A DNA stretch of 36,264 bases from a virus. Taxonomy: Duplodnaviria; Heunggongvirae; Uroviricota; Caudoviricetes. The stretch spans positions 1 through 36,264 of IMG/VR virus record IMGVR_UViG_2778261165_000017; one strand, 5' to 3'. This document shows positions 4,431 to 16,415 of the stretch, piece by piece. The number at the start of each line of letters is the position of its first letter. Positions within the stretch are counted from its first letter, which is position 1. The notes beneath the pieces were generated by a model, which did no database searches, had not been told where the DNA came from, and saw only the letters and a program-made list of their open reading frames with translations. The translations under genes were made by a program, and so were the position numbers.

Positions 4431-4483
4431 GGGCGGCAGAGCAGTCACGGAGTAAAACTGATACCGCCAAACGCCACCAGAAA
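4431..4483 (-). ncRNA. dicF: DicF small RNA (53 nt) with U-tail at 4426..4430
   Basis: Minus-strand sequence TTTCTGGTGGCGTTTGGCGGTATCAGTTTTACTCCGTGACTGCTCTGCCGCCC followed by TTTTT matches DicF as recalled, with one difference near the 5' end. Confidence 0.75.
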
Positions 4484-6273: not shown

Positions 6274-6555
6274 TTACCTAGGAAATTGGCGTCTGGCGTG
6301 GGCGACGCTCACAATTTCAATACTTGAAGTGGCCACACGGTACAGAATGATATAGTTAGGGTGAGCTACAATCTCGCGCAACCCAGACACTCTGTCGCTT
6401 GATGGGTATAAGTACGGATGTTCGGATAAAGCTAAAACACATGTCTCAATGCGAATTTTTAGTCTACGTGCGGCATGGAGATTTTCTTTTGCAATATAGG
6501 CTACGATCTGACGTAAATCATCACGCGCAGAAGGTAGCCATAAGATGGGCAGCAT
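6274..6555 (-). CDS. ParE/RelE-family toxin (93 aa)
   Basis: Translation MLPILWLPSARDDLRQIVAYI...YRV...IEIVSVAHARR has the typical ParE/RelE fold signature; start overlaps the antitoxin stop. Confidence 0.8.
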   Translation of the reverse strand: MLPILWLPSARDDLRQIVAYIAKENLHAARRLKIRIETCVLALSEHPYLYPSSDRVSGLREIVAHPNYIILYRVATSSIEIVSVAHARRQFPR

Positions 6556-6746
6556 CACACACTCCCGTTAGTCGCAGAAATTTGGGCAATGAGATTTTCT
6601 ATTTCTGCCATTGCCTCATCATGGGGAATTGCAGGGCGCGGATCTGCAAGACTTGCAGCTACTTTTGTACGCAGCCATTCGTTGTAGCTGTTTTCTTGCT
6701 CAATGGTTTCAAATTCAGAAACTATAGGCGAAAGAGCAGTGTTCAT
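6555..6746 (-). CDS. Cognate antitoxin (ParD-like, 63 aa)
   Basis: Small acidic ORF immediately upstream of and overlapping the toxin; GGAG RBS 8 nt upstream; 30 nt downstream of the repressor stop. Confidence 0.7.
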   Translation of the reverse strand: MNTALSPIVSEFETIEQENSYNEWLRTKVAASLADPRPAIPHDEAMAEIENLIAQISATNGSV

Positions 6747-6776: not shown

Positions 6777-7184
6777 CTACGCTCGGTGCCCTTTCTGGGC
6801 CGCGAGCCATCTTGCAACAGTGCGATCCATTGACTCTTTTTTGTCTTTCATGTCTTTAAGCATTTGTTCCTGATCTTCCTCTGGAAATGCTCCGAATGTT
6901 TGAAGCAGTTCCCTTTGTCTGGGGCCTATTTTCATGGTATCTGGCACCACAACTTGCTCTTCTTCGCTTGGCGGTAACATAAACCAATACGGGGGAAAGC
7001 CCGTTACGTCTGAAAGTTTATCAAGATTAGCAGTCGATGGACTTGTAATGCCATGAACCCACTTTTGGACTGACTGCTGGGCAACACCTATCCTGCGGGC
7101 TAGCTCTGCCTGCTTAAGTCCTGTTTTTTCCAGCACCAATTTTATTCGGTACGTAGTTATTTCAAGGGTGGTCATTCGCTTCAT
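6777..7184 (-). CDS. Prophage repressor, DicA/RacR-like HTH protein (135 aa)
   Basis: N-terminal HTH (LKQAELARRIGVAQQSVQKWVHG); same length and C-terminal pattern as DicA; divergent from the cro-like gene; no S24 peptidase domain; no obvious SD before the ATG. Confidence 0.8.
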   Translation of the reverse strand: MKRMTTLEITTYRIKLVLEKTGLKQAELARRIGVAQQSVQKWVHGITSPSTANLDKLSDVTGFPPYWFMLPPSEEEQVVVPDTMKIGPRQRELLQTFGAFPEEDQEQMLKDMKDKKESMDRTVARWLAAQKGHRA

Positions 7185-7202: not shown

Positions 7203-7264
7203 AAAAGTGTAACTAGCACAATCAGCTTAAAAGTGTTGATAATATAACTTTAAAAGTGTATAAA
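7203..7264. promoter_or_regulatory. Right operator region: three AAAAGTGT-type sites and a rightward promoter (-35 TTGATA 7236..7241, -10 TATAAA 7259..7264)
   Basis: Sites at 7203..7210, 7226..7238 and 7247..7259; the third lies in the 17-bp promoter spacer. Confidence 0.55.
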
Positions 7265-7291
7265 TCATGGCAATTCACGGGAGTTAACAAT

Positions 7292-7558
7292 ATGCATGAA
7301 TGTTTAAAAAAGAAAATTCACAAAAGAGGGTTATCCCAAGCAGGCGTTGCTCGCTTGATTGGATTGCCGCAACAGGTTGTATCTCGATGGGCTAATGGTC
7401 ATCAGGTTCCTGCGTCAAGGGTTCTACAACTGTGTGAGATTATGCAGTGGGAGGTTACTCCTCACGAACTCCGCCCTGATATTTACCCCAATCCAACCGA
7501 CGGCTTGCCTTCTGAGTTTAAGGCTAACACACAACCAGCTGCGGGAGTTGATTCATGA
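7292..7558 (+). CDS. Cro-like HTH regulator (YdaS-type, 88 aa)
   Basis: HTH LSQAGVARLIGLPQQVVSRW; GGGAG RBS 9 nt upstream of ATG 7292; divergent from repressor. Confidence 0.7.
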   Translation: MHECLKKKIHKRGLSQAGVARLIGLPQQVVSRWANGHQVPASRVLQLCEIMQWEVTPHELRPDIYPNPTDGLPSEFKANTQPAAGVDS

Positions 7559-7980
7559 AAATCAAGCATGAACACATCCGCATGGCGATGAATGCCTGGG
7601 CGCATCCGGACGGCGAAAAAGTACCGGCTGCGAAAATTACCAAAGCGTATTTCGAGCTGGGTATGACGTTCCCTGAACTGCATGACGACAGCAAACACAA
7701 CGCGCTTTATCTCAATACCCAGAAAATTTTCCGCTGGGTAGAGAAAGACACCCCTGATGCAGTTGAAAAAATTCAGGCGTTGTTACCAGCGATCGAAAAG
7801 GCAATGCCACCTTTGCTGGTGGCCAGAATGCGCAGCCACAGTTCAGCTTATTTTCGGGAGCTGGTGGAGACGCGGGAGCGACTGGTGAGAGACGCTGATG
7901 ATTTTGTCGCAGTGGCAATCGCCGGTTTCAATCAGATGAACCGTGGTGGCCCGGCAGGAAATTCTGTGGCAGTACATTGA
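7555..7980 (+). CDS. YdaT-like protein (CII-position, 141 aa)
   Basis: Starts MKIKHEHI as YdaT of Rac is recalled to; ATGA overlap with the cro-like gene. Confidence 0.55.
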   Translation: MKIKHEHIRMAMNAWAHPDGEKVPAAKITKAYFELGMTFPELHDDSKHNALYLNTQKIFRWVEKDTPDAVEKIQALLPAIEKAMPPLLVARMRSHSSAYFRELVETRERLVRDADDFVAVAIAGFNQMNRGGPAGNSVAVH

Positions 7981-8051: not shown

Positions 8052-9098
8052 ATGGCTAACGCCTGGCTCAGATTATGGCATGACATGCCAAACGATCCTA
8101 AGTGGCGAACAATTTCCAGGGTGTCAGGACAGCCAATCGCAACAGTGATGGCTGTGTATATCCACCTCCTGGTGAGCGCGTCACGAAATGTCACGCGAGG
8201 TCACATTGATGTCACGACAGAAGATTTGGCAAGTGCGCTCGACGTGACAGAAGAGGTAATTGATTCAATTTTGCAGACGATGCAGGGGCGGGTACTTGAT
8301 GGTGATTTAATCACTGGATGGGAAAAACGCCAGGTGCTTAAAGAGGACAACGGCAATATTTCGCAAACCGCAAAATCTCCTGCAGAGCGCAAGAGGGCGC
8401 AGCGAGAGAGGGAAAGAAAGCGGGAACAAAATGGCGATTGTCACGGAGCGTCACGAAATGTCACGCACATGTCACGGCAAGTCACGACAGATAAAGATAC
8501 AGATAAAGATACAGATAAAGAAGATCAAAACACTATGGTCCATGGCGTAAAAAACGCCACGAACCAGGCAGGGGATGTTCAGACCGTCAATCCTGGTCAG
8601 CCAGCAGGCACGACACCGGAAGCCGATTCGGGCGCTGTGCAGCAGGTGATGACCGCAAGGCCGGAGCAATCGCACCCACTGCAGCAGCCTGAAGCCGATT
8701 CCGCCATTCAGCGGGAAGCCGATCGGGTAGTCCCGGAAAAAAACGGGCAGTCTGTGGGAAGAGTGGATTATCCGGATGTGTTCGAACAGGTCTGGCGGGA
8801 GTACCCGTTGCGTGCCGGGGCAAACCCGAAGAAATCCGCTTTCAGTGCCTGGAAGGCCAGATTACGCGAGGGGGTGCCACCAGAGGCCATGCTGGATGGC
8901 GTGAGGCGTTACGCAAGATACCTGGCGGCTACCGGGAAAACGGGAACGGAATTTGTTCAGCGAGCGACGACGTTTTTGGGACCGGACCGGAATTTTGAGA
9001 ACCCCTGGTTGCTCCCGGTAAGCGGCACGAACAACCAGCGTTGTGTGAATCATATTTCTGAACCTGATACAGAAATTCCGCCTGGTTTCAGGGGATAA
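8052..9098 (+). CDS. Replication initiator (O-analogue) with origin iterons inside its coding sequence (348 aa)
   Basis: AAGAGG RBS 5 nt upstream of ATG 8052; position after cro/cII-like genes; gene contains nine GTCACG repeats at helical spacing. Confidence 0.65.
   Translation: MANAWLRLWHDMPNDPKWRTISRVSGQPIATVMAVYIHLLVSASRNVTRGHIDVTTEDLASALDVTEEVIDSILQTMQGRVLDGDLITGWEKRQVLKEDNGNISQTAKSPAERKRAQRERERKREQNGDCHGASRNVTHMSRQVTTDKDTDKDTDKEDQNTMVHGVKNATNQAGDVQTVNPGQPAGTTPEADSGAVQQVMTARPEQSHPLQQPEADSAIQREADRVVPEKNGQSVGRVDYPDVFEQVWREYPLRAGANPKKSAFSAWKARLREGVPPEAMLDGVRRYARYLAATGKTGTEFVQRATTFLGPDRNFENPWLLPVSGTNNQRCVNHISEPDTEIPPGFRG
8178..8216. repeat. Iteron cluster 1: GTCACG/GTCACA at 8180, 8190, 8200, 8211
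   Basis: Direct repeats at 10-11 bp spacing counted in sequence. Confidence 0.7.
8440..8522. repeat. Iteron cluster 2 (GTCACG at 8440, 8450, 8460, 8471, 8481) followed by a 12-bp tandem repeat ACAGATAAAGAT x3 (8487..8522)
   Basis: Direct repeats at 10-11 bp spacing; exact 19-bp duplicate GCGTCACGAAATGTCACGC at 8178..8196 and 8448..8466; A+T-rich tandem repeat immediately downstream. Confidence 0.7.
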
Positions 9099-9138
9099 GT
9101 GTTGATTTCAGGTCATGAGGTAATTTTAAGGAGGACTT

Positions 9139-9561
9139 GTGGTAAAAGTTTTTACACAAGAAGAGCGAGAAAAAATTAAAGGGCAGGTTGTTGAGCTAGT
9201 ACGCCGGAGTGGGCGCGAGACGCTACGGCAACTGGAATCCAAGACAGGTGCGACAAGATATCTGATCAGCGTTCTCGCCAGAGAGCTGGTTGCCAGTGGC
9301 GATATATACAACTCTGGTTACGGGTTATTCCCGTCTGAACAGGCGCGTAAGGACTGGCAAAATGCCCGTAAAAAGCTCTCAAGGGCAAAGCTGAAGAAAC
9401 CATCTGCGGTTGATCCGGACCTTATCTGGTCATTACCAGACGGAGAAATACGTCGCTACGACAGGCGTATGAACATAATCTGTCGCGAGTGCCGGAGAAG
9501 TGAAGTTATGCAGCGCGTGCTGGCGTTCTATCAGGGGAATTTTCAGGAGGTGATGCTGTGA
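9139..9561 (+). CDS. Hypothetical protein (140 aa)
   Basis: AAGGAGG RBS 4-5 nt before GTG start; translationally coupled to the next gene. Confidence 0.6.
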   Translation: MVKVFTQEEREKIKGQVVELVRRSGRETLRQLESKTGATRYLISVLARELVASGDIYNSGYGLFPSEQARKDWQNARKKLSRAKLKKPSAVDPDLIWSLPDGEIRRYDRRMNIICRECRRSEVMQRVLAFYQGNFQEVML

Positions 9562-10046
9562 GTACACCGGCAACCATTCTTGATATGTGCTGTGGCAGCC
9601 GTATGTTCTGGTTCGATAAGAATGACGACCGGGCGATATTTAGCGATATCAGAAAGGAAGAGCATACATTGTGCGATGGGCGACGCCTGATTATTAGCCC
9701 TGACCTGATAGCAGATTTTCGTGCATTACCATTTGCAGACGCAACGTTTCCGGTTGTTGTATTCGACCCTCCGCATCTTGAGCGTATTGGTGATAATGCC
9801 TGGATGGGAAAGAAATATGGACGGCTGAATAAAGATACCTGGCGTGATGATTTGCGGCAGGGATTTAAAGAAGCCTTTCGTGTGTTGTGGCCACATGGCG
9901 TTCTGATTTTTAAATGGAATGAAACGCAAATATCTGTCCGCCAGATATTGGCACTGACCGACGTGAAACCAATCATCAGCCAGCGCACTGGTAAGAACGA
10001 TAAAACACATTGGATTATTTTTATGAAGGAGGCAACCAGTGGGTAA
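9558..10046 (+). CDS. Phage Dam-type N6-adenine DNA methyltransferase (162 aa)
   Basis: DPPH motif (DPPY/F/H class) and N-terminal CCGSRMF SAM-binding-like motif; AGGAGG RBS 7 nt before GTG start. Confidence 0.65.
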   Translation: MSTPATILDMCCGSRMFWFDKNDDRAIFSDIRKEEHTLCDGRRLIISPDLIADFRALPFADATFPVVVFDPPHLERIGDNAWMGKKYGRLNKDTWRDDLRQGFKEAFRVLWPHGVLIFKWNETQISVRQILALTDVKPIISQRTGKNDKTHWIIFMKEATSG

Positions 10047-10293
10047 ATCAAAATGCCTGGTTTATGGCAACAAGATAGAACCGTGTACGGCACTGGCAAA
10101 ATCCCTTGAGCATGATGCTGAATACACGACGCGAAAAGGTCTGCTGATATACAAAATCTGGAATGAGAGTTTAACTCGCGGCCCTGATTTGGTGATGTTG
10201 CGTTCCGGTGAATTTTCTAAATCACCAGTGCGGGTTTCATTTTGTCCGTTCTGTGGTGAAAGTCTGAAAACGTGGGAGAACAGAAATGAATGA
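10039..10293 (+). CDS. Small zinc-ribbon-like protein (84 aa)
   Basis: AAGGAGG RBS 6 nt before GTG; Cys pairs (C..C...CPFCGE); overlaps neighbours. Confidence 0.5.
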   Translation: MGKSKCLVYGNKIEPCTALAKSLEHDAEYTTRKGLLIYKIWNESLTRGPDLVMLRSGEFSKSPVRVSFCPFCGESLKTWENRNE

Positions 10294-10597
10294 AATTAAA
10301 GAAATACCAGTAGTACGTGATGAATATGGCTGCTGGACGCATCCTGAATATGAAAAATTCTGTGATGGTAGAGAACATATTTCAACGGAAGAGTTTAACG
10401 CATGGATGGAGGAAAATAATCTTCAATGGACCATCAGAACTATGGATGAAGATGATTTTAATCTGGACGCAGATGGTCCCGATATTGCCGCTTGGGAACC
10501 AGAGCGACCAGAGGGCGAAGGCTGGTTTGTTGGCTCTATTCATGACACTGAAGATGGTCCTGTTTGTGTATGGCTGAGAAATAAGGCTGAAGCATAA
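10286..10597 (+). CDS. Hypothetical acidic protein (103 aa)
   Basis: Overlaps upstream gene stop; coding-like composition. Confidence 0.55.
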   Translation: MNEIKEIPVVRDEYGCWTHPEYEKFCDGREHISTEEFNAWMEENNLQWTIRTMDEDDFNLDADGPDIAAWEPERPEGEGWFVGSIHDTEDGPVCVWLRNKAEA

Positions 10598-10726
10598 AGG
10601 CGATAAATCACCTGGCAACAAAACACTGAAAAATTTAAATCAGAAGTGAATTTTATTAAATCCTTAACCGGAGGGATTCCTGCACCCTCAGAACATCAGG
10701 AGGCCGCCTGAAAGGGCGGTAATGAA

Positions 10727-10909
10727 ATGCGAAAGTTCAGAATAATAATTGAAACGGGAATGGCTGGTGGAGATTTTGAGGATGTATTCGAAGTGGATGA
10801 TGGCGCGACACCAGATGAAATACAGGACGAAGCAAAAGAAATTTTCTTTAACTACTGCAATTACTCATATCACGAAATAAAAGACGAGGAGGAAGAACAA
10901 AATGGCTGA
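10727..10909 (+). CDS. Hypothetical acidic protein (60 aa)
   Basis: ORF with weak RBS; overlaps next gene start. Confidence 0.4.
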   Translation: MRKFRIIIETGMAGGDFEDVFEVDDGATPDEIQDEAKEIFFNYCNYSYHEIKDEEEEQNG

Positions 10910-11078
10910 TTTTGGTTCAACTAAATACAACGTCAGTTTTGAAGAATGGCATGAACTGTTAATGGACTATGCAGAGTTACGCGGTGGAAGTGCTGCTGAT
11001 GCTGAAGCATGGCGTGATGATTATGAAGCAGGGAAAACTCCGGTCGAAGCATATTGTGATGAGTGGGGCGATGAATGA
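10902..11078 (+). CDS. Hypothetical protein (58 aa)
   Basis: Hand-translated MADFGSTKYNVSFEEWHELLMDYAELRGG...; ATGA overlap with next gene at 11075. Confidence 0.4.
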   Translation: MADFGSTKYNVSFEEWHELLMDYAELRGGSAADAEAWRDDYEAGKTPVEAYCDEWGDE

Positions 11079-11623
11079 GCGGGATTAACTATCAGATGCT
11101 GCGGGATAAGGCAGAGAACGCAACTAAAGGAGGCTACATCGTAGGGCATACATCTGTTAACCAGCACGGTAATTTAACAGGAGTTTTTGTTTGTCAAAAA
11201 TGGAAAGGAGAACCAGGTGGCGTGATTGCAGAATGTCATGTTAACTGCCTGGTTGAAACAGATGCTCAGGCTTATGCAAACGCAGAATTCATAGCAGAGG
11301 CTAGCCCGGCTACCGTGCTGGCACTACTGGATGAACGGGAAAGGAACCAGCAATACATCAAAAGCCGCGATCAGGAGAACGAGGATATTGCGCTAACGGT
11401 AGGGAAGCTGCGCGTTGAGCTTGAAGCAGAAAAACAGCGGGCAAAAGTTCTATTTATGGAAAATGCTCGGCTTAAGTCAGGCATAGCCGGTCTGATACAC
11501 CTCGGTATTCGATATGCAGATGTTGAGGTCATGAGAATTGCTGGAGATGCCCAGCTTTCTACCCCATGCACTGACAGCATCATAAACAGCATTGCAACAG
11601 GCATTCGCATCAAAGGAGAGTGA
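11075..11623 (+). CDS. Ead/Ea22-like protein (182 aa)
   Basis: Motif ATVLALLDERERNQQYIKSRDQENEDIALTVGKLRVELE recalled from Ead/Ea22-family prophage proteins. Confidence 0.6.
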   Translation: MSGINYQMLRDKAENATKGGYIVGHTSVNQHGNLTGVFVCQKWKGEPGGVIAECHVNCLVETDAQAYANAEFIAEASPATVLALLDERERNQQYIKSRDQENEDIALTVGKLRVELEAEKQRAKVLFMENARLKSGIAGLIHLGIRYADVEVMRIAGDAQLSTPCTDSIINSIATGIRIKGE

Positions 11624-11624
11624 T

Positions 11625-11834
11625 ATGGCTATCGCTGCAAGTTACACCATGCATCTCTATTGTGATTGCCTCCAGTGTACAGATGGCAAATATAAGTCGC
11701 CAGACTTCGGTGAGTATATAGGTACGTCATGGGCTGGCTGTGCAAAAGAGGCGCGCAAGGATGGCTGGCGAATAAGCAAAGACAAAACGCGTGCTTTTTC
11801 ACCCGGGCATAAAGTTTTGAGGATTAACAAATGA
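11625..11834 (+). CDS. Hypothetical Cys-rich protein (69 aa)
   Basis: AAAGGAGAG RBS before ATG 11625; ATGA overlap with next gene. Confidence 0.5.
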   Translation: MAIAASYTMHLYCDCLQCTDGKYKSPDFGEYIGTSWAGCAKEARKDGWRISKDKTRAFSPGHKVLRINK

Positions 11835-12640
11835 CAACATTTACCGACGACGACAAGAAACTAATTAAAGAAATCAAAGAGCGTATCAGCAGCCCGGAGG
11901 TTCGAGACGATATTGAGCGCCGGGCTTATGAAATAGCGTTAGCCTCGCTGGAAGCAGAGCCGGTGGCATGGCTGCATTCAGACAATGGCTTAGGTATTCC
12001 GGCAATAACGAGGAGTAAAAACATTGCTGACAGTTGGTTATCAAAGAGCTGGTATGTTCAGCCGCTATATATAGCCAAGCCAGTGCCGGTGGTGCCAGAT
12101 GCTCGTCCGTCTTTAAATAATGGCATAGTCGGCTTTGATGAAGGCTGGAACGCTTGCCGCGCCGCCATGATTCATGCCGGAAACTTTCGGGAAAACTTGA
12201 ATTCGTCAACCAATAATTTTCGGGAAATTGCGGAAACGTCAATCAACTCTCCGGTAGTTCCTGGTGAGGTGTTGTCCGCAATCCGGGAGGTTGCCAGGGT
12301 TCGTGCCGATTTCGATGATTTTGACGGTGACAGGCGAGGTATCGGTGATTGTCTGAATGAGTCTGAGCAAGAGCTTATCGTTACCATTAACAAATATGCC
12401 AGTCAGATTGCAGCAAAGCCGCCGCAGGAGGAGAAGAGTGGGAACGCTGACTGTACCGCCACTTCTGGTAAAACTGACAATCCACAAGCATCCGGAAAAC
12501 AGGTTGATGAATTAACCATGTTGGTTAAGCGATTAGCCAGTTCGTTAAAAAGCGTCAATAAATCAAGTAAGCTGCCTGATAAGGCGATGGATTATCTTTT
12601 GCGGAACGGACTGGTAAGTGTGGAGGGGAGGGGACGATGA
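11831..12640 (+). CDS. Hypothetical phage protein (269 aa)
   Basis: Long ORF translationally coupled to neighbours; no family assigned. Confidence 0.6.
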   Translation: MTTFTDDDKKLIKEIKERISSPEVRDDIERRAYEIALASLEAEPVAWLHSDNGLGIPAITRSKNIADSWLSKSWYVQPLYIAKPVPVVPDARPSLNNGIVGFDEGWNACRAAMIHAGNFRENLNSSTNNFREIAETSINSPVVPGEVLSAIREVARVRADFDDFDGDRRGIGDCLNESEQELIVTINKYASQIAAKPPQEEKSGNADCTATSGKTDNPQASGKQVDELTMLVKRLASSLKSVNKSSKLPDKAMDYLLRNGLVSVEGRGR

Positions 12641-12720
12641 CCTGGCCTGAGGCATTTACCACGGTAGGGATTGCAATGGCCGTGGCGTTGGTGGTGTATT
12701 CGATTTGCCGCTGGGGGTAA
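12637..12720 (+). CDS. Possible 27-aa membrane peptide
   Basis: ATGA-coupled to the upstream gene; single hydrophobic helix (MTWPEAFTTVGIAMAVALVVYSICRWG). Confidence 0.3.
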   Translation: MTWPEAFTTVGIAMAVALVVYSICRWG

Positions 12721-12882
12721 GGTATTAAAGAATGCCCCCGCACACATAAGTTGAGCGTCTGAGGTGTGGGGATAGGGAGTTAGTTAAATTGTTATACAAC
12801 AATATCTGATTTTGTATTGAAGCAAGGAAGAGGTTGCCACATATTGAATCATGCACGTGTACGTCAAATGTGGGAGGTCATC

Positions 12883-12972
12883 GTGCTGGTTCTGAAATGT
12901 GCGCTGGCTATTGCGGCTGTAATGGCAATTTATTGTCTTGTTATCGTTCTTATGGATCACCTTTCTGATTGA
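12883..12972 (+). CDS. Possible 29-aa hydrophobic peptide
   Basis: GGGAGG RBS 6 nt before GTG; VLVLKCALAIAAVMAIYCLVIVLMDHLSD; 210 nt upstream of hok. Confidence 0.3.
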   Translation: MLVLKCALAIAAVMAIYCLVIVLMDHLSD

Positions 12973-13127
12973 TTTTATATTGGCGAGGTGACGGGAGTTA
13001 AGTAGAATTGCTGCGGGTGCTTGAGGCTGTCTGCCTCAGGCATGAACACCAAAAGGCAGATAGAGAAAAGCCCCAGTTAACATTACGCGTCCTGCAAGAC
13101 GCTTAACATTAATCTGAGGCCATATCT

Positions 13128-13340
13128 ATGCTCTACACACGTAGGTTAGCCTCTTACGTGCCGAAAGGCAAGGAGAAGCAGGCTATGAAGCAGCAAAAGG
13201 CGATGCTAATCGCCCTGATCGTCATCTGTTTAACCGTCATAGTGACGGCACTGGTAACGAGGAAAGACCTCTGCGAGGTACGAATCCGAACCGGCCAGAC
13301 GGAGGTCGCTGTCTTCACAGCTTACGAACCTGAGGAGTAA
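13128..13340 (+). CDS. mok: Mok-like in-frame extended reading frame (70 aa)
   Basis: In-frame N-terminal extension of hok, like MokC (69 aa) as recalled. Confidence 0.5.
   Translation: MLYTRRLASYVPKGKEKQAMKQQKAMLIALIVICLTVIVTALVTRKDLCEVRIRTGQTEVAVFTAYEPEE
13185..13340 (+). CDS. hok: Hok/Gef-family type I toxin (51 aa)
   Basis: MKQQKAMLIALIVICLTVIVTALVTRKDLCEVRIRTGQTEVAVFTAYEPEE is near-identical to HokC/Gef as recalled; AAGGAG RBS. Confidence 0.85.
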   Translation: MKQQKAMLIALIVICLTVIVTALVTRKDLCEVRIRTGQTEVAVFTAYEPEE

Positions 13341-13410
13341 GAGACCCGGCGGGGGGAGAAATCCCTCGCCACCGCTGATGTGTCAGGCATCCTCAACGCA
13401 CCCGCACTTA

Positions 13411-13437
13411 ACCCGCTTCGGCGGGTTTTGTTTTTTC
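13411..13437 (+). terminator. Intrinsic terminator after hok
   Basis: Hairpin ACCCGC-TTCG-GCGGGT followed by TTTTGTTTTTT. Confidence 0.7.
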
Positions 13438-13508
13438 TGGTCGTTCTGGTTTACAATCCATCCGTCAGCCTGAACAACTGGCACCTGCTGCGCCAGCAGA
13501 GAAAACAG

Positions 13509-13787
13509 ATGGCGCACGATACCAAATTTTACAATTCGGATAACTCTGCCGCCCCTGCCAGCAGGCACGGGCGGCGTTCTCATGCATTCAAATATGACTG
13601 GTATCAGCACGATCCCTGCACTGAAGAACAGGCCGAATGGCTGATCCATAACTACCGCAGACGTGGGTATGAGTTTAGGAAAGCCCTCAGCCTCGATTAT
13701 CGTCACTGGATAATCTACGTCAGGCTGCCGTACTCCGAGCGCCCACCGCGTCCGTCCCGCACATTCCAGCAACGCATCTGGAGGTAA
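13509..13787 (+). CDS. Hypothetical basic protein (92 aa)
   Basis: ORF ending 1 nt before the DUF968 gene start; start at internal ATG assumed. Confidence 0.45.
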   Translation: MAHDTKFYNSDNSAAPASRHGRRSHAFKYDWYQHDPCTEEQAEWLIHNYRRRGYEFRKALSLDYRHWIIYVRLPYSERPPRPSRTFQQRIWR

Positions 13788-13788
13788 C

Positions 13789-14844
13789 GTGCGGGTATTA
13801 CTTCGACCTGTTCTGGTACCGGAACTCGGGCTGGTGATCGTTAAGCCGGGCCGTGAATCCATGCCGGTATTCCACAATACCCGGGTACTGGTGGAGCCGG
13901 AACCGAAAAGCATGCGTAATCTGCCGTCCGGGGTCGTTCCTGCCGTTCGCCAGCCGCTGGCGGAGGATAAATCATTACTGCCATTTTTCAGCGACGAACG
14001 AGTGATTCGTGCTGCTGGTGGCGCTGGCGCATTGTCTGACTGGTTACTGCGCCATGTTAAATCCTGCCAGTGGCCACACGGTGATTATCACCACAGTGAA
14101 ACCGTCATTCACCGTTATGGTACCGGCGCAATGGTGTTGTGCTGGCACTGCGACAACCAGCTGCGCGACCAGACCTCCGAATCACTCGGGCAACTTGCTC
14201 ACCAAAACCTGTCTGCATGGATGATTGACGTCATACGCCATGCAATGAATGGCTCGCAGGAACGGGAATTATCGCTGGCTGAATTATCCTGGTGGGCGGT
14301 CCGCAATCAGGTGGCGGACGCGCTACCGGAAGCGGTATTACGTCGTTCGCTGGGGTTGCGTGCGGAAAAAATCCGCTCAATGTACCGTGAAAGCGACATC
14401 GTACCGGGAGAGCAGACCGCCACCAGCATACTGAAGCAGCGCACAAAAAATCTTGCGCCGCTGCCTCACGCCCACCAGCAAAACCCGCCACAGGAAAAGA
14501 CGGTGGTCAGCATTGCCGTTGATCCCGAGTCACCGGCTCAGTATCTCCAGCGCCAGAAATCACAACGGGAAGAGATGCCTGTATACACGCGCTGGGTAAA
14601 AACGCAGAAATGCATGACGTGTGGCAATCAGGCAGATGATCCGCATCACATCATTGGTCATGGACTGGGAGGGATGGGAACAAAGGCTGATGATTTGTTT
14701 GTTATTCCGCTGTGCCGTAAATGCCATAGCGAACTACACGCCGGGGTAAAAGATTTTGAAGAAAAACACGGCAGCCAGCTGTTGTTGCTGATTCGTTTTT
14801 TAATGCACGCGAGAAATTCGGGTGTTCTGAAGTGGAAAGCATAA
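13789..14844 (+). CDS. DUF968-family protein (YdfU-like, 351 aa) with C-terminal HNH-like Cys/His motif
   Basis: GGAGG RBS before GTG; C-terminal CMTCGN...HHIIGHG...CRKCHSELH; same position as ydfU upstream of Q in Qin. Confidence 0.7.
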   Translation: MRVLLRPVLVPELGLVIVKPGRESMPVFHNTRVLVEPEPKSMRNLPSGVVPAVRQPLAEDKSLLPFFSDERVIRAAGGAGALSDWLLRHVKSCQWPHGDYHHSETVIHRYGTGAMVLCWHCDNQLRDQTSESLGQLAHQNLSAWMIDVIRHAMNGSQERELSLAELSWWAVRNQVADALPEAVLRRSLGLRAEKIRSMYRESDIVPGEQTATSILKQRTKNLAPLPHAHQQNPPQEKTVVSIAVDPESPAQYLQRQKSQREEMPVYTRWVKTQKCMTCGNQADDPHHIIGHGLGGMGTKADDLFVIPLCRKCHSELHAGVKDFEEKHGSQLLLLIRFLMHARNSGVLKWKA

Positions 14845-15210
14845 ATGACTGAACGCATAGAATTTGTTTTGCCTTACCCGCCAACGGTGAACACTTACTG
14901 GCGTCGTCGTGGCAGCACATATTTTGTATCAAAAGCCGGGGAGCGTTATCGCCGGGCAGTGGCGCTTATTGTTCGCCAGCAGCGGCTGAAATTAAGCCTG
15001 TCCGGAAGGCTGGCAATAAAAATTATTGCAGAGCCACCGGATAAGCGCCGCCGCGACCTGGACAATATCCTGAAGGCACCACTGGATGCGCTGACGCATG
15101 CCGGACTTCTCATAGACGACGAGCAGTTTGATGAAATCAATATTGTGCGCGGACTGCCTGTTCCTGGTGGTCGGCTGGGGATAAAAATCACAGAACTGGA
15201 GTGCGCATGA
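14845..15210 (+). CDS. rusA: Holliday junction resolvase RusA (121 aa)
   Basis: Motifs YPPTVNTYW, DKRRRDLDN, GGRLGIKITE align with RusA as recalled. Confidence 0.85.
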   Translation: MTERIEFVLPYPPTVNTYWRRRGSTYFVSKAGERYRRAVALIVRQQRLKLSLSGRLAIKIIAEPPDKRRRDLDNILKAPLDALTHAGLLIDDEQFDEINIVRGLPVPGGRLGIKITELECA

Positions 15211-15896
15211 ATAACCAGTATTTACAGTTTGTGCGTGAGCAGCTCATTATCGCTACCGCTGATTTGAGTGGGGCAACAAAAGGTCAGCTTGAAGCCTGGC
15301 AGGAGAATGCCATGTTTGATACAGGGCGTTACAGGCGTAAAAAAATCCGGTACCGCGATGAAGTGACTGGAAGAATGATAACGCGGGATAGTCCACCGAT
15401 ACCGGGAAAACAATCACTGGCGAAAGGCTCATCAATTGCTCTGGTAAGTCAGGTTGAGTTTTCGACATCATCATGGCGACGGGCAGTTCTGTCTCTTGAA
15501 GAACTTCATAAAGCCTGGTTGTTGTGGTGTTACAGCGGGAGTATTTATTGGGAATATCAGATCGCGATAACACAGTGGGCGTGGAATGAATTTAATGCTC
15601 AATCCGGTACCAGAAAAATTGCAGGGAAAACGCAGGAACGCCTGAAAAAATTAATCTGGCTGGCGGCGCAGGCAGTAAAAGCAGAACTTTTTGGTGGGGA
15701 AGGTTATGAATACCAGGAGCTGGCATTACTGGCGGGAGTGACAACTAAAAACTGGTCAAAAACATTTACTCGTCACTGGGTTGCAATGAAACACATTTTT
15801 CACCGACTGGATAGTGAGGCTTTATTGTTTGTAATGAGAACACGTTCAAAACAAAAGACGGCATTTTCAAAGCAAAGTGTTGCAAAAGTAGATTGA
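15207..15896 (+). CDS. Late-gene antiterminator Q-like protein (229 aa)
   Basis: ATGA overlap with rusA; lies immediately upstream of a strong promoter plus terminator and the lysis cassette; family not sequence-verified. Confidence 0.6.
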   Translation: MNNQYLQFVREQLIIATADLSGATKGQLEAWQENAMFDTGRYRRKKIRYRDEVTGRMITRDSPPIPGKQSLAKGSSIALVSQVEFSTSSWRRAVLSLEELHKAWLLWCYSGSIYWEYQIAITQWAWNEFNAQSGTRKIAGKTQERLKKLIWLAAQAVKAELFGGEGYEYQELALLAGVTTKNWSKTFTRHWVAMKHIFHRLDSEALLFVMRTRSKQKTAFSKQSVAKVD

Positions 15897-15908
15897 AAGG
15901 CATATATT
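15880..15908 (+). promoter_or_regulatory. Candidate late promoter (pR'-like): -35 TTGCAA, 17-bp spacer, -10 TATATT
   Basis: Hexamers and spacing read directly from sequence; overlaps the 3' end of the Q-like gene. Confidence 0.5.
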
Positions 15909-16105: not shown

Positions 16106-16181
16106 GGCCCTTTAGCTCAGTGGTGAGAGCGAGCGACTCATAATCGCCAGGTCGCTGGTTCAAATCCAGCAAGGGCCACCA
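16106..16181 (+). tRNA. tRNA with CAT anticodon, Ile2 (lysidine)-like / Met-type
   Basis: Cloverleaf folded by hand; 7-bp acceptor stem GGCCCTT/AAGGGCC; anticodon loop CTCATAA; closely resembles E. coli ileX as recalled; CCA encoded. Confidence 0.85.
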
Positions 16182-16182
16182 A

Positions 16183-16259
16183 CCGCCACTAGCTCATCAG
16201 GAAAGAGCGTCAACCCTTTAAGTTGAGTGTGCGAGGTTCGAGTCCCCGGTGGCGGTCCA
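16183..16259 (+). tRNA. tRNA-like gene with atypical anticodon loop CCTTTAA (anticodon TTT if canonical, C at position 33)
   Basis: Perfect 7-bp acceptor stem CCGCCAC/GTGGCGG, perfect 5-bp anticodon stem, T-loop TTCGAGT with one A-C mismatch in the T stem; CCA encoded. Confidence 0.55.
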
Positions 16260-16261
16260 GT

Positions 16262-16337
<76 letters not shown>

Positions 16338-16340
16338 TAT

Positions 16341-16415
<75 letters not shown>

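Follow-up and report, generated by a model that had tools for sequence, protein, structure and literature searches.

The 36,264-nt window analysed here (IMG/VR virus record IMGVR_UViG_2778261165_000017, positions 1 to 36,264; all coordinates below are window positions) carries, inside a phage replication initiator gene, two arrays of a short direct repeat, or iteron, the second of which runs directly into an A-rich tract (Table 1). This element is very probably the vegetative replication origin of a lambda-like Escherichia coli prophage, located within the gene that encodes its initiator. We favour this reading because the N-terminal domain of the initiator is the sole constant partner of the arrays, because the parts stand in the same order as in ori-lambda and in SPP1 oriL, because both arrays occupy coding positions that appear permissive, and because array length changes in steps that preserve the reading frame. 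The repeats had been described as origin-like in a first-pass annotation made from the sequence alone, a description now supported by selection at the DNA level, by the recurrence of array 2 with its A-rich tract in about 45 loci, and by the concerted change of the cores.

All the repeats lie within one open reading frame (ORF) of 348 codons on the plus strand, whose start was set at ATG 8052 as homologues begin with MAN(A/S)WLRLWHDM; the ORF listing gives GTG 8046. The first-pass annotation had reported nine copies of GTCACG (one of them GTCACA) in two clusters at 10–11 bp spacing, and these were found on the plus strand with core starts at 8180, 8190, 8200 (GTCACA) and 8211 in array 1 (spacing 10/10/11 bp) and at 8440, 8450, 8460, 8471 and 8481 in array 2 (spacing 10/10/11/10 bp), array 2 being the presumed core initiator-binding site of the origin. 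Its further statements were also borne out: the 19-mer GCGTCACGAAATGTCACGC has exactly two occurrences, at 8178 and 8448, 270 bp apart; the second cluster is followed by three tandem copies of a 12-bp A+T-rich unit (ACAGATAAAGAT, 8487–8522); and the repeats encode repeated peptides, ASRNVT twice and DKDTDKDTDK once. The repeat-finder check that it had proposed was run, and Tandem Repeats Finder recovered both the 10-bp-period array (4.8 copies at 8439–8487) and, directly 3' of the last core, the unit ACAGATAAAGAT (2.9 copies at 8487–8521). Nine of the 18 GTCACG sites present on the two strands of the window fall within 307 bp (binomial P ~1e-14), and no further cluster of at least three cores within 60 nt was found on either strand of the whole window. 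The window also has a lone inverted core, missing from the first-pass annotation, which about half of the GTCACG-class loci described below share at the matching gene position (nt 192); its synonymous conservation is only moderate, and coding may account for it. A promoter and terminator scan returned site counts at chance level. One sigma-70-like match on the minus strand (8437–8464, GTGACA-16-GACAAT) is made of reverse-complemented array-2 cores; it was taken as chance and is probably meaningless.

Several lines of evidence show that the repeats are selected as DNA and not as peptide. The nine cores fall in all three codon phases, the period of 10–11 bp not being a multiple of three. When synonymous codons were permuted with the protein kept, a mean of 2.3 GTCACR per gene was obtained, with a maximum of 6, so that none of 5000 permutations reached the nine observed. 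Conservation was then measured in a codon alignment of 22 homologous N-domains (63–78% amino-acid identity to the window protein), as the frequency of the major allele at the third positions of four- and six-fold codons that are conserved. It amounted to 0.97 at the 7 sites within array-1 cores versus 0.43 at 23 sites outside them (Mann-Whitney p=4e-5), and to just 0.36 at the Arg codon R49, which lies in the spacer between two cores. The frame in which the array-2 cores are read differs from locus to locus, and all four array-2 differences from the 95%-identical phages Evi and Tritos sit in spacers. With the cores selected as DNA, the repeated peptides are therefore a by-product of the DNA repeats.

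The distribution of the element was examined by scanning one genome per species, which gave 55 loci coding for the N-terminal ~140 residues, from Enterobacterales, Pseudomonas, Aeromonas-type phages, Bordetella, Acidovorax, Janthinobacterium, Sphingomonas and several metagenome-assembled genomes. A layout like that of the window, in which the iteron core is the commonest hexamer of the gene, was found in about 45 of them, spread over gamma-, beta- and alpha-proteobacteria, with the arrays at gene nt ~129–160 and ~350–450 and a 10/11-bp spacing. Isolated phages share it, among them Aeromonas phage pAEv1818 (4+3 cores) and Pseudomonas phage P7869 (4+4). At least three core classes can be told apart, (T)GTCACG(C/A), (T)GTAACGC and (C)CGAACGC, having the 3' ACG(C) in common and differing in the 5' triplet. 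The two arrays of a locus always share one class; they change class together, as expected if a single protein reads both. Array 2 is present in nearly all family members and is always directly followed by an A- and purine-rich repeat. Since array 1 is missing in some members (loci L039, L054, L032/34/44 and L047), the universal unit is array 2 plus the A-rich tract. Array length varies in steps of 21 bp, equal to two iterons and to seven codons, 21 bp being the smallest slippage unit that preserves the reading frame; in array 1, for instance, the window has four cores and a 21-bp indel gives six in the E. albertii locus L006 and in the enterohaemorrhagic E. coli prophage L063. The C-terminal halves mostly differ between loci and the protein is therefore a mosaic.

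Some further observations were made on these loci. In one complete E. coli genome (H43) the segment 8150–8560 contains about 24 extra bp. The distances between the two arrays cluster at 249, 258/259 and 270/271 bp, and a Rayleigh test for helical phasing was significant. It was similarly significant for any assumed repeat from 10.0 to 11.0 and is confounded by shared ancestry and by the period of the arrays themselves, so that inter-array phasing was ruled out as evidence and no claim is made on it. A search of plasmids for a stand-alone replicon returned prophage-like matches only, besides two Pseudomonas records of 51 kb, probably from phages.

The tract that follows array 2 is the presumed DNA unwinding element (DUE). 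No 40-mer of the gene is less stable than the one that starts at 8490, which by its low stacking energy ranks within the top 0.13% of the whole window. In nearly all relatives the corresponding tract is 61–86% A+T, including loci of 60–69% G+C, with sequences such as (C/A)(A/T)AGATAAAGATAAAGA, CAGATACAGATACAG and AGAGAAGAGTAGAGAAGA. Directly 3' of the tract lies an imperfect palindrome, a possible third origin element. Its counterpart in relatives has the form GGTTCATGGCG-N7-CGCCAGTGAACC (GGCG-N7-CGCC), with GGC and GCC invariant at fourfold sites; the case is weak, as it comes from six sequences in which the peptide VHGEK.AS is conserved too. In ori-lambda a palindrome likewise lies beyond the AT-rich tract. 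On the minus strand the window palindrome was also scored as a terminator-like hairpin. In loci L006, L063 and L043 a junction AAACCCCACACATAA(A)ACGCGC stands just after the A-rich tract, at the opening of the DnaT-like C-domain. Because this junction is common to E. coli prophages and to the Sphingomonas locus, it suggests a recombination boundary immediately 3' of the origin.

The protein encoded by the ORF was assigned by PHROGs to phrog_3729, 'replication initiation protein' (E=5.6e-243), with weaker matches to families that carry the annotations DnaD-like helicase loader and replisome organizer, and it is named 'phage replisome organizer' in NCBI sources. No Pfam family matched at E<=0.01; Phage_rep_org_N (PF09681) gave a full-length collinear match of 13 bits, below its cut-off of 23.3. 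A sequence search of the PDB with the family profile returned nothing relevant. The N-domain family is a large one: at 50% identity it numbers 2189 clusters when E<=0.001 is required, and 990 at E<=1e-10. The AlphaFold2 model comprises a confidently predicted winged-helix-like N-domain (aa 1–93), with three helices, then a loop, a helix-turn-helix and a beta hairpin. This domain is followed by a basic helix (aa 110–126), by a disordered linker (aa 128–236, predicted local distance difference test score ~30) and by a small C-terminal domain with helices at 242–250, 260–272, 277–294 and 299–305. The C-terminal part matches phrog_1701, 'DnaD-like helicase loader' (E=1.5e-62 over aa 120–348). Array 1 codes for the end of helix 3 and for the low-confidence loop before the helix-turn-helix, and array 2 with its tract codes for aa 130–157 of the disordered linker. 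Judging from the model, both arrays thus sit in coding segments (a loop and a disordered linker) where the protein would tolerate a sequence dictated by the DNA. In Shigella Stx phage 75/02 the C-domain of the window protein is fused to a different N-domain (locus L003) and adjoins a DnaC gene. At the equivalent linker position (2870–2930) the initiator gene of this phage has a purine-rich (GAACAG)n repeat with no obvious phased iterons upstream, so its origin may be built differently.

As to the protein that reads the cores, indirect evidence points to the initiator's own N-domain. This domain is the one constant partner of the arrays, since the C-terminal halves, the downstream loaders and the upstream regulators are all swapped between loci: homologues of the Cro/YdaS-like, CII/YdaT-like and cI genes of the window lie upstream in just 3–6 of 52 loci, and the downstream gene may be DnaC-like, lambda-P-like, DnaB-like, DUF977 or other. 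When the residues encoded by array 1 were masked, iteron class tracked N-domain similarity in broad outline, with exceptions. Outside these residues, the best covariation with iteron class is shown by three positions (110, 114 and 117) of the basic helix encoded immediately 5' of array 2; as phylogeny was not controlled, they are only a lead as specificity determinants.

The C-terminal tail of the initiator suggests how the helicase could be brought in. In a BLASTP alignment of the tail with DnaT of E. coli (VNHISEPDTEIPPGFRG versus VNTVSEPDSQIPPGFRG) 15 of 25 residues are identical (60%), and the last seven, IPPGFRG, are identical and terminal in both proteins; an NCBIfam DnaT match was also obtained in the initiator. 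No homologue of DnaC, P or DnaB was found in the window, and no helicase or helicase-loader gene lies between the initiator gene and the Q antiterminator gene (9099–15900). Nor is a homologue of these three proteins seen in phages Evi and Tritos, in the annotated stretch downstream of their initiator gene. Across loci the type of tail tracks the downstream gene: downstream of a tail of the form ...IP.GFRG the next gene is of the DnaC/IstB type, or a loader gene is lacking; downstream of a tail of the form ...LD..DW.. it is of the lambda-P type; and other tails precede a DnaB-like gene. In E. coli dnaT stands directly upstream of dnaC, an order mirrored in many phage relatives, where the tail-bearing gene lies directly 5' of the DnaC-type gene; the rest of the initiator is, on the contrary, unrelated to DnaT. 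From these sequences we infer that the tail engages DnaC, or the DnaB-DnaC complex, the phage using that of its host. The tail may also mark the DnaT surface that engages DnaB-DnaC, and how DnaT recruits DnaB/DnaC has been described as still unknown (PMC13377028).

A working scheme for the origin can be proposed from these elements. Transcription from the cro-side promoter would yield the initiator, whose winged-helix N-domain would bind the (T)GTCACG(C/A) cores. With one core per helical turn, four to five protomers would be aligned on one face of the DNA at array 2, and the resulting oligomer would distort the duplex and open the A/purine-rich tract beside it, which is the least stable. Host DnaB-DnaC would then be recruited by the C-terminal domain and the DnaT-like tail in which it ends, the phage carrying no loader gene of its own. 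Array 1, which lies about 25 helical turns upstream, would offer the same sites in an auxiliary role; it would probably raise the local occupancy of the initiator or loop to array 2, and could also throttle the initiator's own transcription. A bolder version of the scheme has a lone phage protein firing the origin by way of two helically phased, looping arrays, one of them within the DNA coding for its binding domain, with the conserved AGATAA/AGATAC hexamer repeat read as a sequence-specific single-strand element in a DnaA-trio-like manner and host DnaB-DnaC recruited directly by a copied DnaT tail. We regard this version as rather unlikely; if true, it would identify the DnaT surface that recruits DnaB/DnaC in replication restart.

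Some points weigh against the origin interpretation. Array 1 is absent from part of the family and its role is uncertain; the predicted 'recognition' helix (67–77) is acidic, so that the surface reading the DNA may not be the classical one; conservation of the A-rich tract could partly reflect selection for a charged, disordered linker peptide; and literature searches returned no paper on this initiator family, its iterons or its origin. The arrays might instead be purely regulatory operators of the initiator or of another regulator, serving autorepression, a transcriptional roadblock inside the initiator gene or a handcuffing-type copy control, with the true origin elsewhere. The P1, F and RK2 plasmids are well known to use additional iteron clusters for control, some relatives do without array 1, and both arrays lie within a transcribed gene. 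As in proven origins, however, array 2 is without exception coupled to the A-rich tract of least stability, and the window holds no other iteron cluster. A purely regulatory function is therefore judged improbable, although it may still hold for array 1 alone.

The sites could also be bound by some other protein (the Cro/YdaS-like, CII/YdaT-like or DUF977 product, a host factor or terminase) for regulation, packaging or recombination, considering that neighbouring genes do code for DNA-binding proteins. Yet the arrays persist in loci where the YdaS, YdaT and cI homologues are missing upstream, as well as outside the few E. coli-type loci that have DUF977 downstream, and the core classes follow the N-domain in broad outline. 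The GTCACG core is, moreover, not known to resemble DnaA, IHF or CRP sites. A different binder seems very improbable. Readings of the motifs as DnaA boxes, CRP sites or a DnaA-trio were considered and rejected as poor matches. It could finally be argued that the repeats exist for the sake of the protein, as SRNVT and DKDT modules, or that they arose by neutral slippage or gene conversion in a low-complexity linker. Indeed, the 19-bp duplicate is in frame and gives ASRNVT twice, and a disordered, low-complexity linker is predicted. Such an origin of the repeats is hardly credible and already largely refuted by the period and the locus-dependent frames of the cores, by synonymous-site conservation limited to the cores, by the synonymous shuffles and by the retention of AT-rich codons in GC-rich hosts.

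Table 1. Position, strand and description of the origin elements, of the initiator domains and of other features in the window.
Feature	Position	Strand	Description
Initiator gene	8052..9098	+	348 aa, 'phage replisome organizer' type
Winged-helix-like N-domain	8052..8330	+	aa 1-93; presumed iteron-binding domain
Iteron array 1	8180..8216	+	4 cores: GTCACG, GTCACG, GTCACA, GTCACG; codes aa 43-55
Lone inverted core GTCACG	8243..8248	-	codes part of LDVTE
Basic helix	8379..8429	+	aa 110-126, AERKRAQRERERKRE; conserved R..R...RER, just 5' of array 2
Iteron array 2	8440..8486	+	5 GTCACG cores; codes aa 130-145, disordered linker
A+T-/purine-rich tract	8487..8535	+	ACAGATAAAGAT x3, then AGATCAAAACACTA; 73% A+T, 73% purine
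Imperfect palindrome	8536..8566	.	13-bp arms, TGGTCCATGGCGT-AAAAA-ACGCCACGAACCA; directly 3' of the A-rich tract
Helical C-terminal domain	8769..8966	+	aa 240-305; presumed helicase/loader-recruitment module
C-terminal tail	9021..9095	+	aa 324-348, ...VNHISEPDTEIPPGFRG; nearly identical to E. coli DnaT C-terminal tail
cI-like repressor gene	6777-7184	-	divergent, upstream of initiator
Cro/YdaS-like gene	7256-7558	.	
CII/YdaT-like gene	7555-7980	.	
Overlapping small ORF pair	6274-6746	-	94 and 63 aa; next to repressor gene
DicF small RNA	4431-4482	-	
hok/sok-type antitoxin RNA	13015-13190	+	

With regard to the neighbourhood, the replication module consists of a single gene, followed by a DUF977/'Ren-like' gene (9139–9561) and by a DNA methyltransferase-like ORF (9558–10046) that matches only positions 51–204 of a 229-position PHROG profile. 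Four tRNA genes (Met-CAT, Lys-TTT, Thr-TGT and Gly-TCC) are located downstream of the Q gene at 16106–16415. Judged by size, arrangement and sequence, the overlapping small ORFs next to the repressor gene, the larger of which matches only phrog_2455 (unknown function), were taken to encode a toxin resembling ParE/RelE together with its antitoxin.

The element is widespread, the segment 8150–8560 being present in 2097 of 5426 complete E. coli genomes (39%), a frequency that lends it practical weight. The initiator family is very common, yet the window protein and the scanned homologues stay below Pfam thresholds and no published mapping of such an origin was found. Iterons and DUE within an initiator gene are a classical, already known arrangement; what is new here is the initiator family, the hexamer cores phased once per helical turn, the second array in the region coding for the DNA-binding domain, the three specificity classes that change in concert and the loader-less, DnaT-tailed design. 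A known origin with three iteron classes would offer a handle on prophage induction, copy number and incompatibility between co-resident prophages, and also on the design of small initiator-plus-origin replicons. The GTCACG, GTAACG and CGAACGC classes form a natural specificity-swap series for the way a winged-helix initiator reads DNA, and a DnaT-like tail on an initiator without a loader gene is a testable route into the engagement of DnaB-DnaC by DnaT.

Among known systems, ori-lambda was the one named by the first-pass annotation, according to which the element mirrors ori-lambda inside gene O. This parallel stands for the order of the parts but not for the parts themselves, the initiator not being a lambda O homologue and the iterons not being 19-bp dyad sites. 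The lambda O sites (~19 bp) are dyad-symmetric and bound as dimers. Membership of the lambda O family was tried and can be excluded on sequence comparison: PF04492 (Phage_rep_O) was not among the E<=1 matches of 15 family members, and hhalign gave a probability of 0.1. In lambda, O-binding iterons and then an AT-rich tract are located in the middle of gene O (PMC7466680), and in the lambda record four sites of ~18 bp are followed by ACACAAAAGACACTATTACAAAAGAAAAAAGAAAAGATTATT. As in lambda, the window origin would belong to the rightward early operon and lie 3' of cro and cII, within the initiator gene and between the parts coding for its N- and C-terminal domains, with iterons preceding an A/purine-rich tract on the coding strand. 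Modular exchange is also shared, the N-domain travelling with the origin and the C-domain matching the loader. On the contrary, lambda has four ~19-bp sites where the window has two arrays of 6–7-bp direct cores every 10–11 bp, and no P gene is present in the window, although a P-like gene does occur in relatives whose C-terminal tail is of another type.

The element also has the generic build of an iteron origin, with at least three direct repeats adjoining a low-stability element. In the P1, F, RK2 and pPS10 origins, direct repeats next to a DUE are bound by a winged-helix Rep protein and extra iteron clusters lie at a distance, and the origins of Staphylococcus aureus pathogenicity islands (SaPI) have two sets of short hexamer-type iterons. 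The direct repeats beside a predicted DUE and the further cluster at a distance are common to these origins and to the window. The iterons of plasmids and satellites are, however, mostly 17–22 bp long and outside the rep gene, whereas here a phage origin (lytic/inducible), with no sequence relation to them, would be contained in a coding sequence.

A closer counterpart is oriL of the Bacillus phage SPP1. It lies in gene 38, where G38P binds repeated 'AB boxes' that adjoin an AT-rich DUE, and for origin-dependent replication in vitro a fragment of 356 bp is both necessary and sufficient (PMC5737612). In the middle of SPP1 gene 38 we found an 11-bp-period array (4.6 copies) and, 8 bases on, a 9-bp-period A-rich repeat, which we presume to be the AB boxes and the DUE; the corresponding repeats of the window have a 10-bp period (4.8 copies) and a 12-bp A-rich unit. 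In both cases a direct-repeat array with a period of about one helical turn precedes an A-rich repeat in the linker-coding middle of the initiator gene. The two initiators are also alike in lacking an AAA+ domain and in combining a winged-helix-type N-domain with a helical C-domain, and the 'phage replisome organizer' name of the window protein, like the replisome organizer or DnaD-like annotation of its PHROG relatives, agrees with this. Membership of the G38P family remains unproven from the sequences compared: hhalign found no homology to G38P, PF09524 (the G38P C-terminal family) was not detected at E<=1, and only a local motif, GK.G.(E/D)(F/Y)..R..T.F, resembles the G38P C-domain. No G39P or G40P homologue was found in the window, and some relatives have a DnaB-like gene next to the initiator gene. 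The host of the window phage is a proteobacterium, and its second array is located 260 bp upstream, within the N-domain coding region, whereas the second site of SPP1, oriR, is a separate and distant region of the genome (PMC5737612). By analogy with these systems we infer that the element works like both phage origins, and that in its architecture it is closest to SPP1 oriL.

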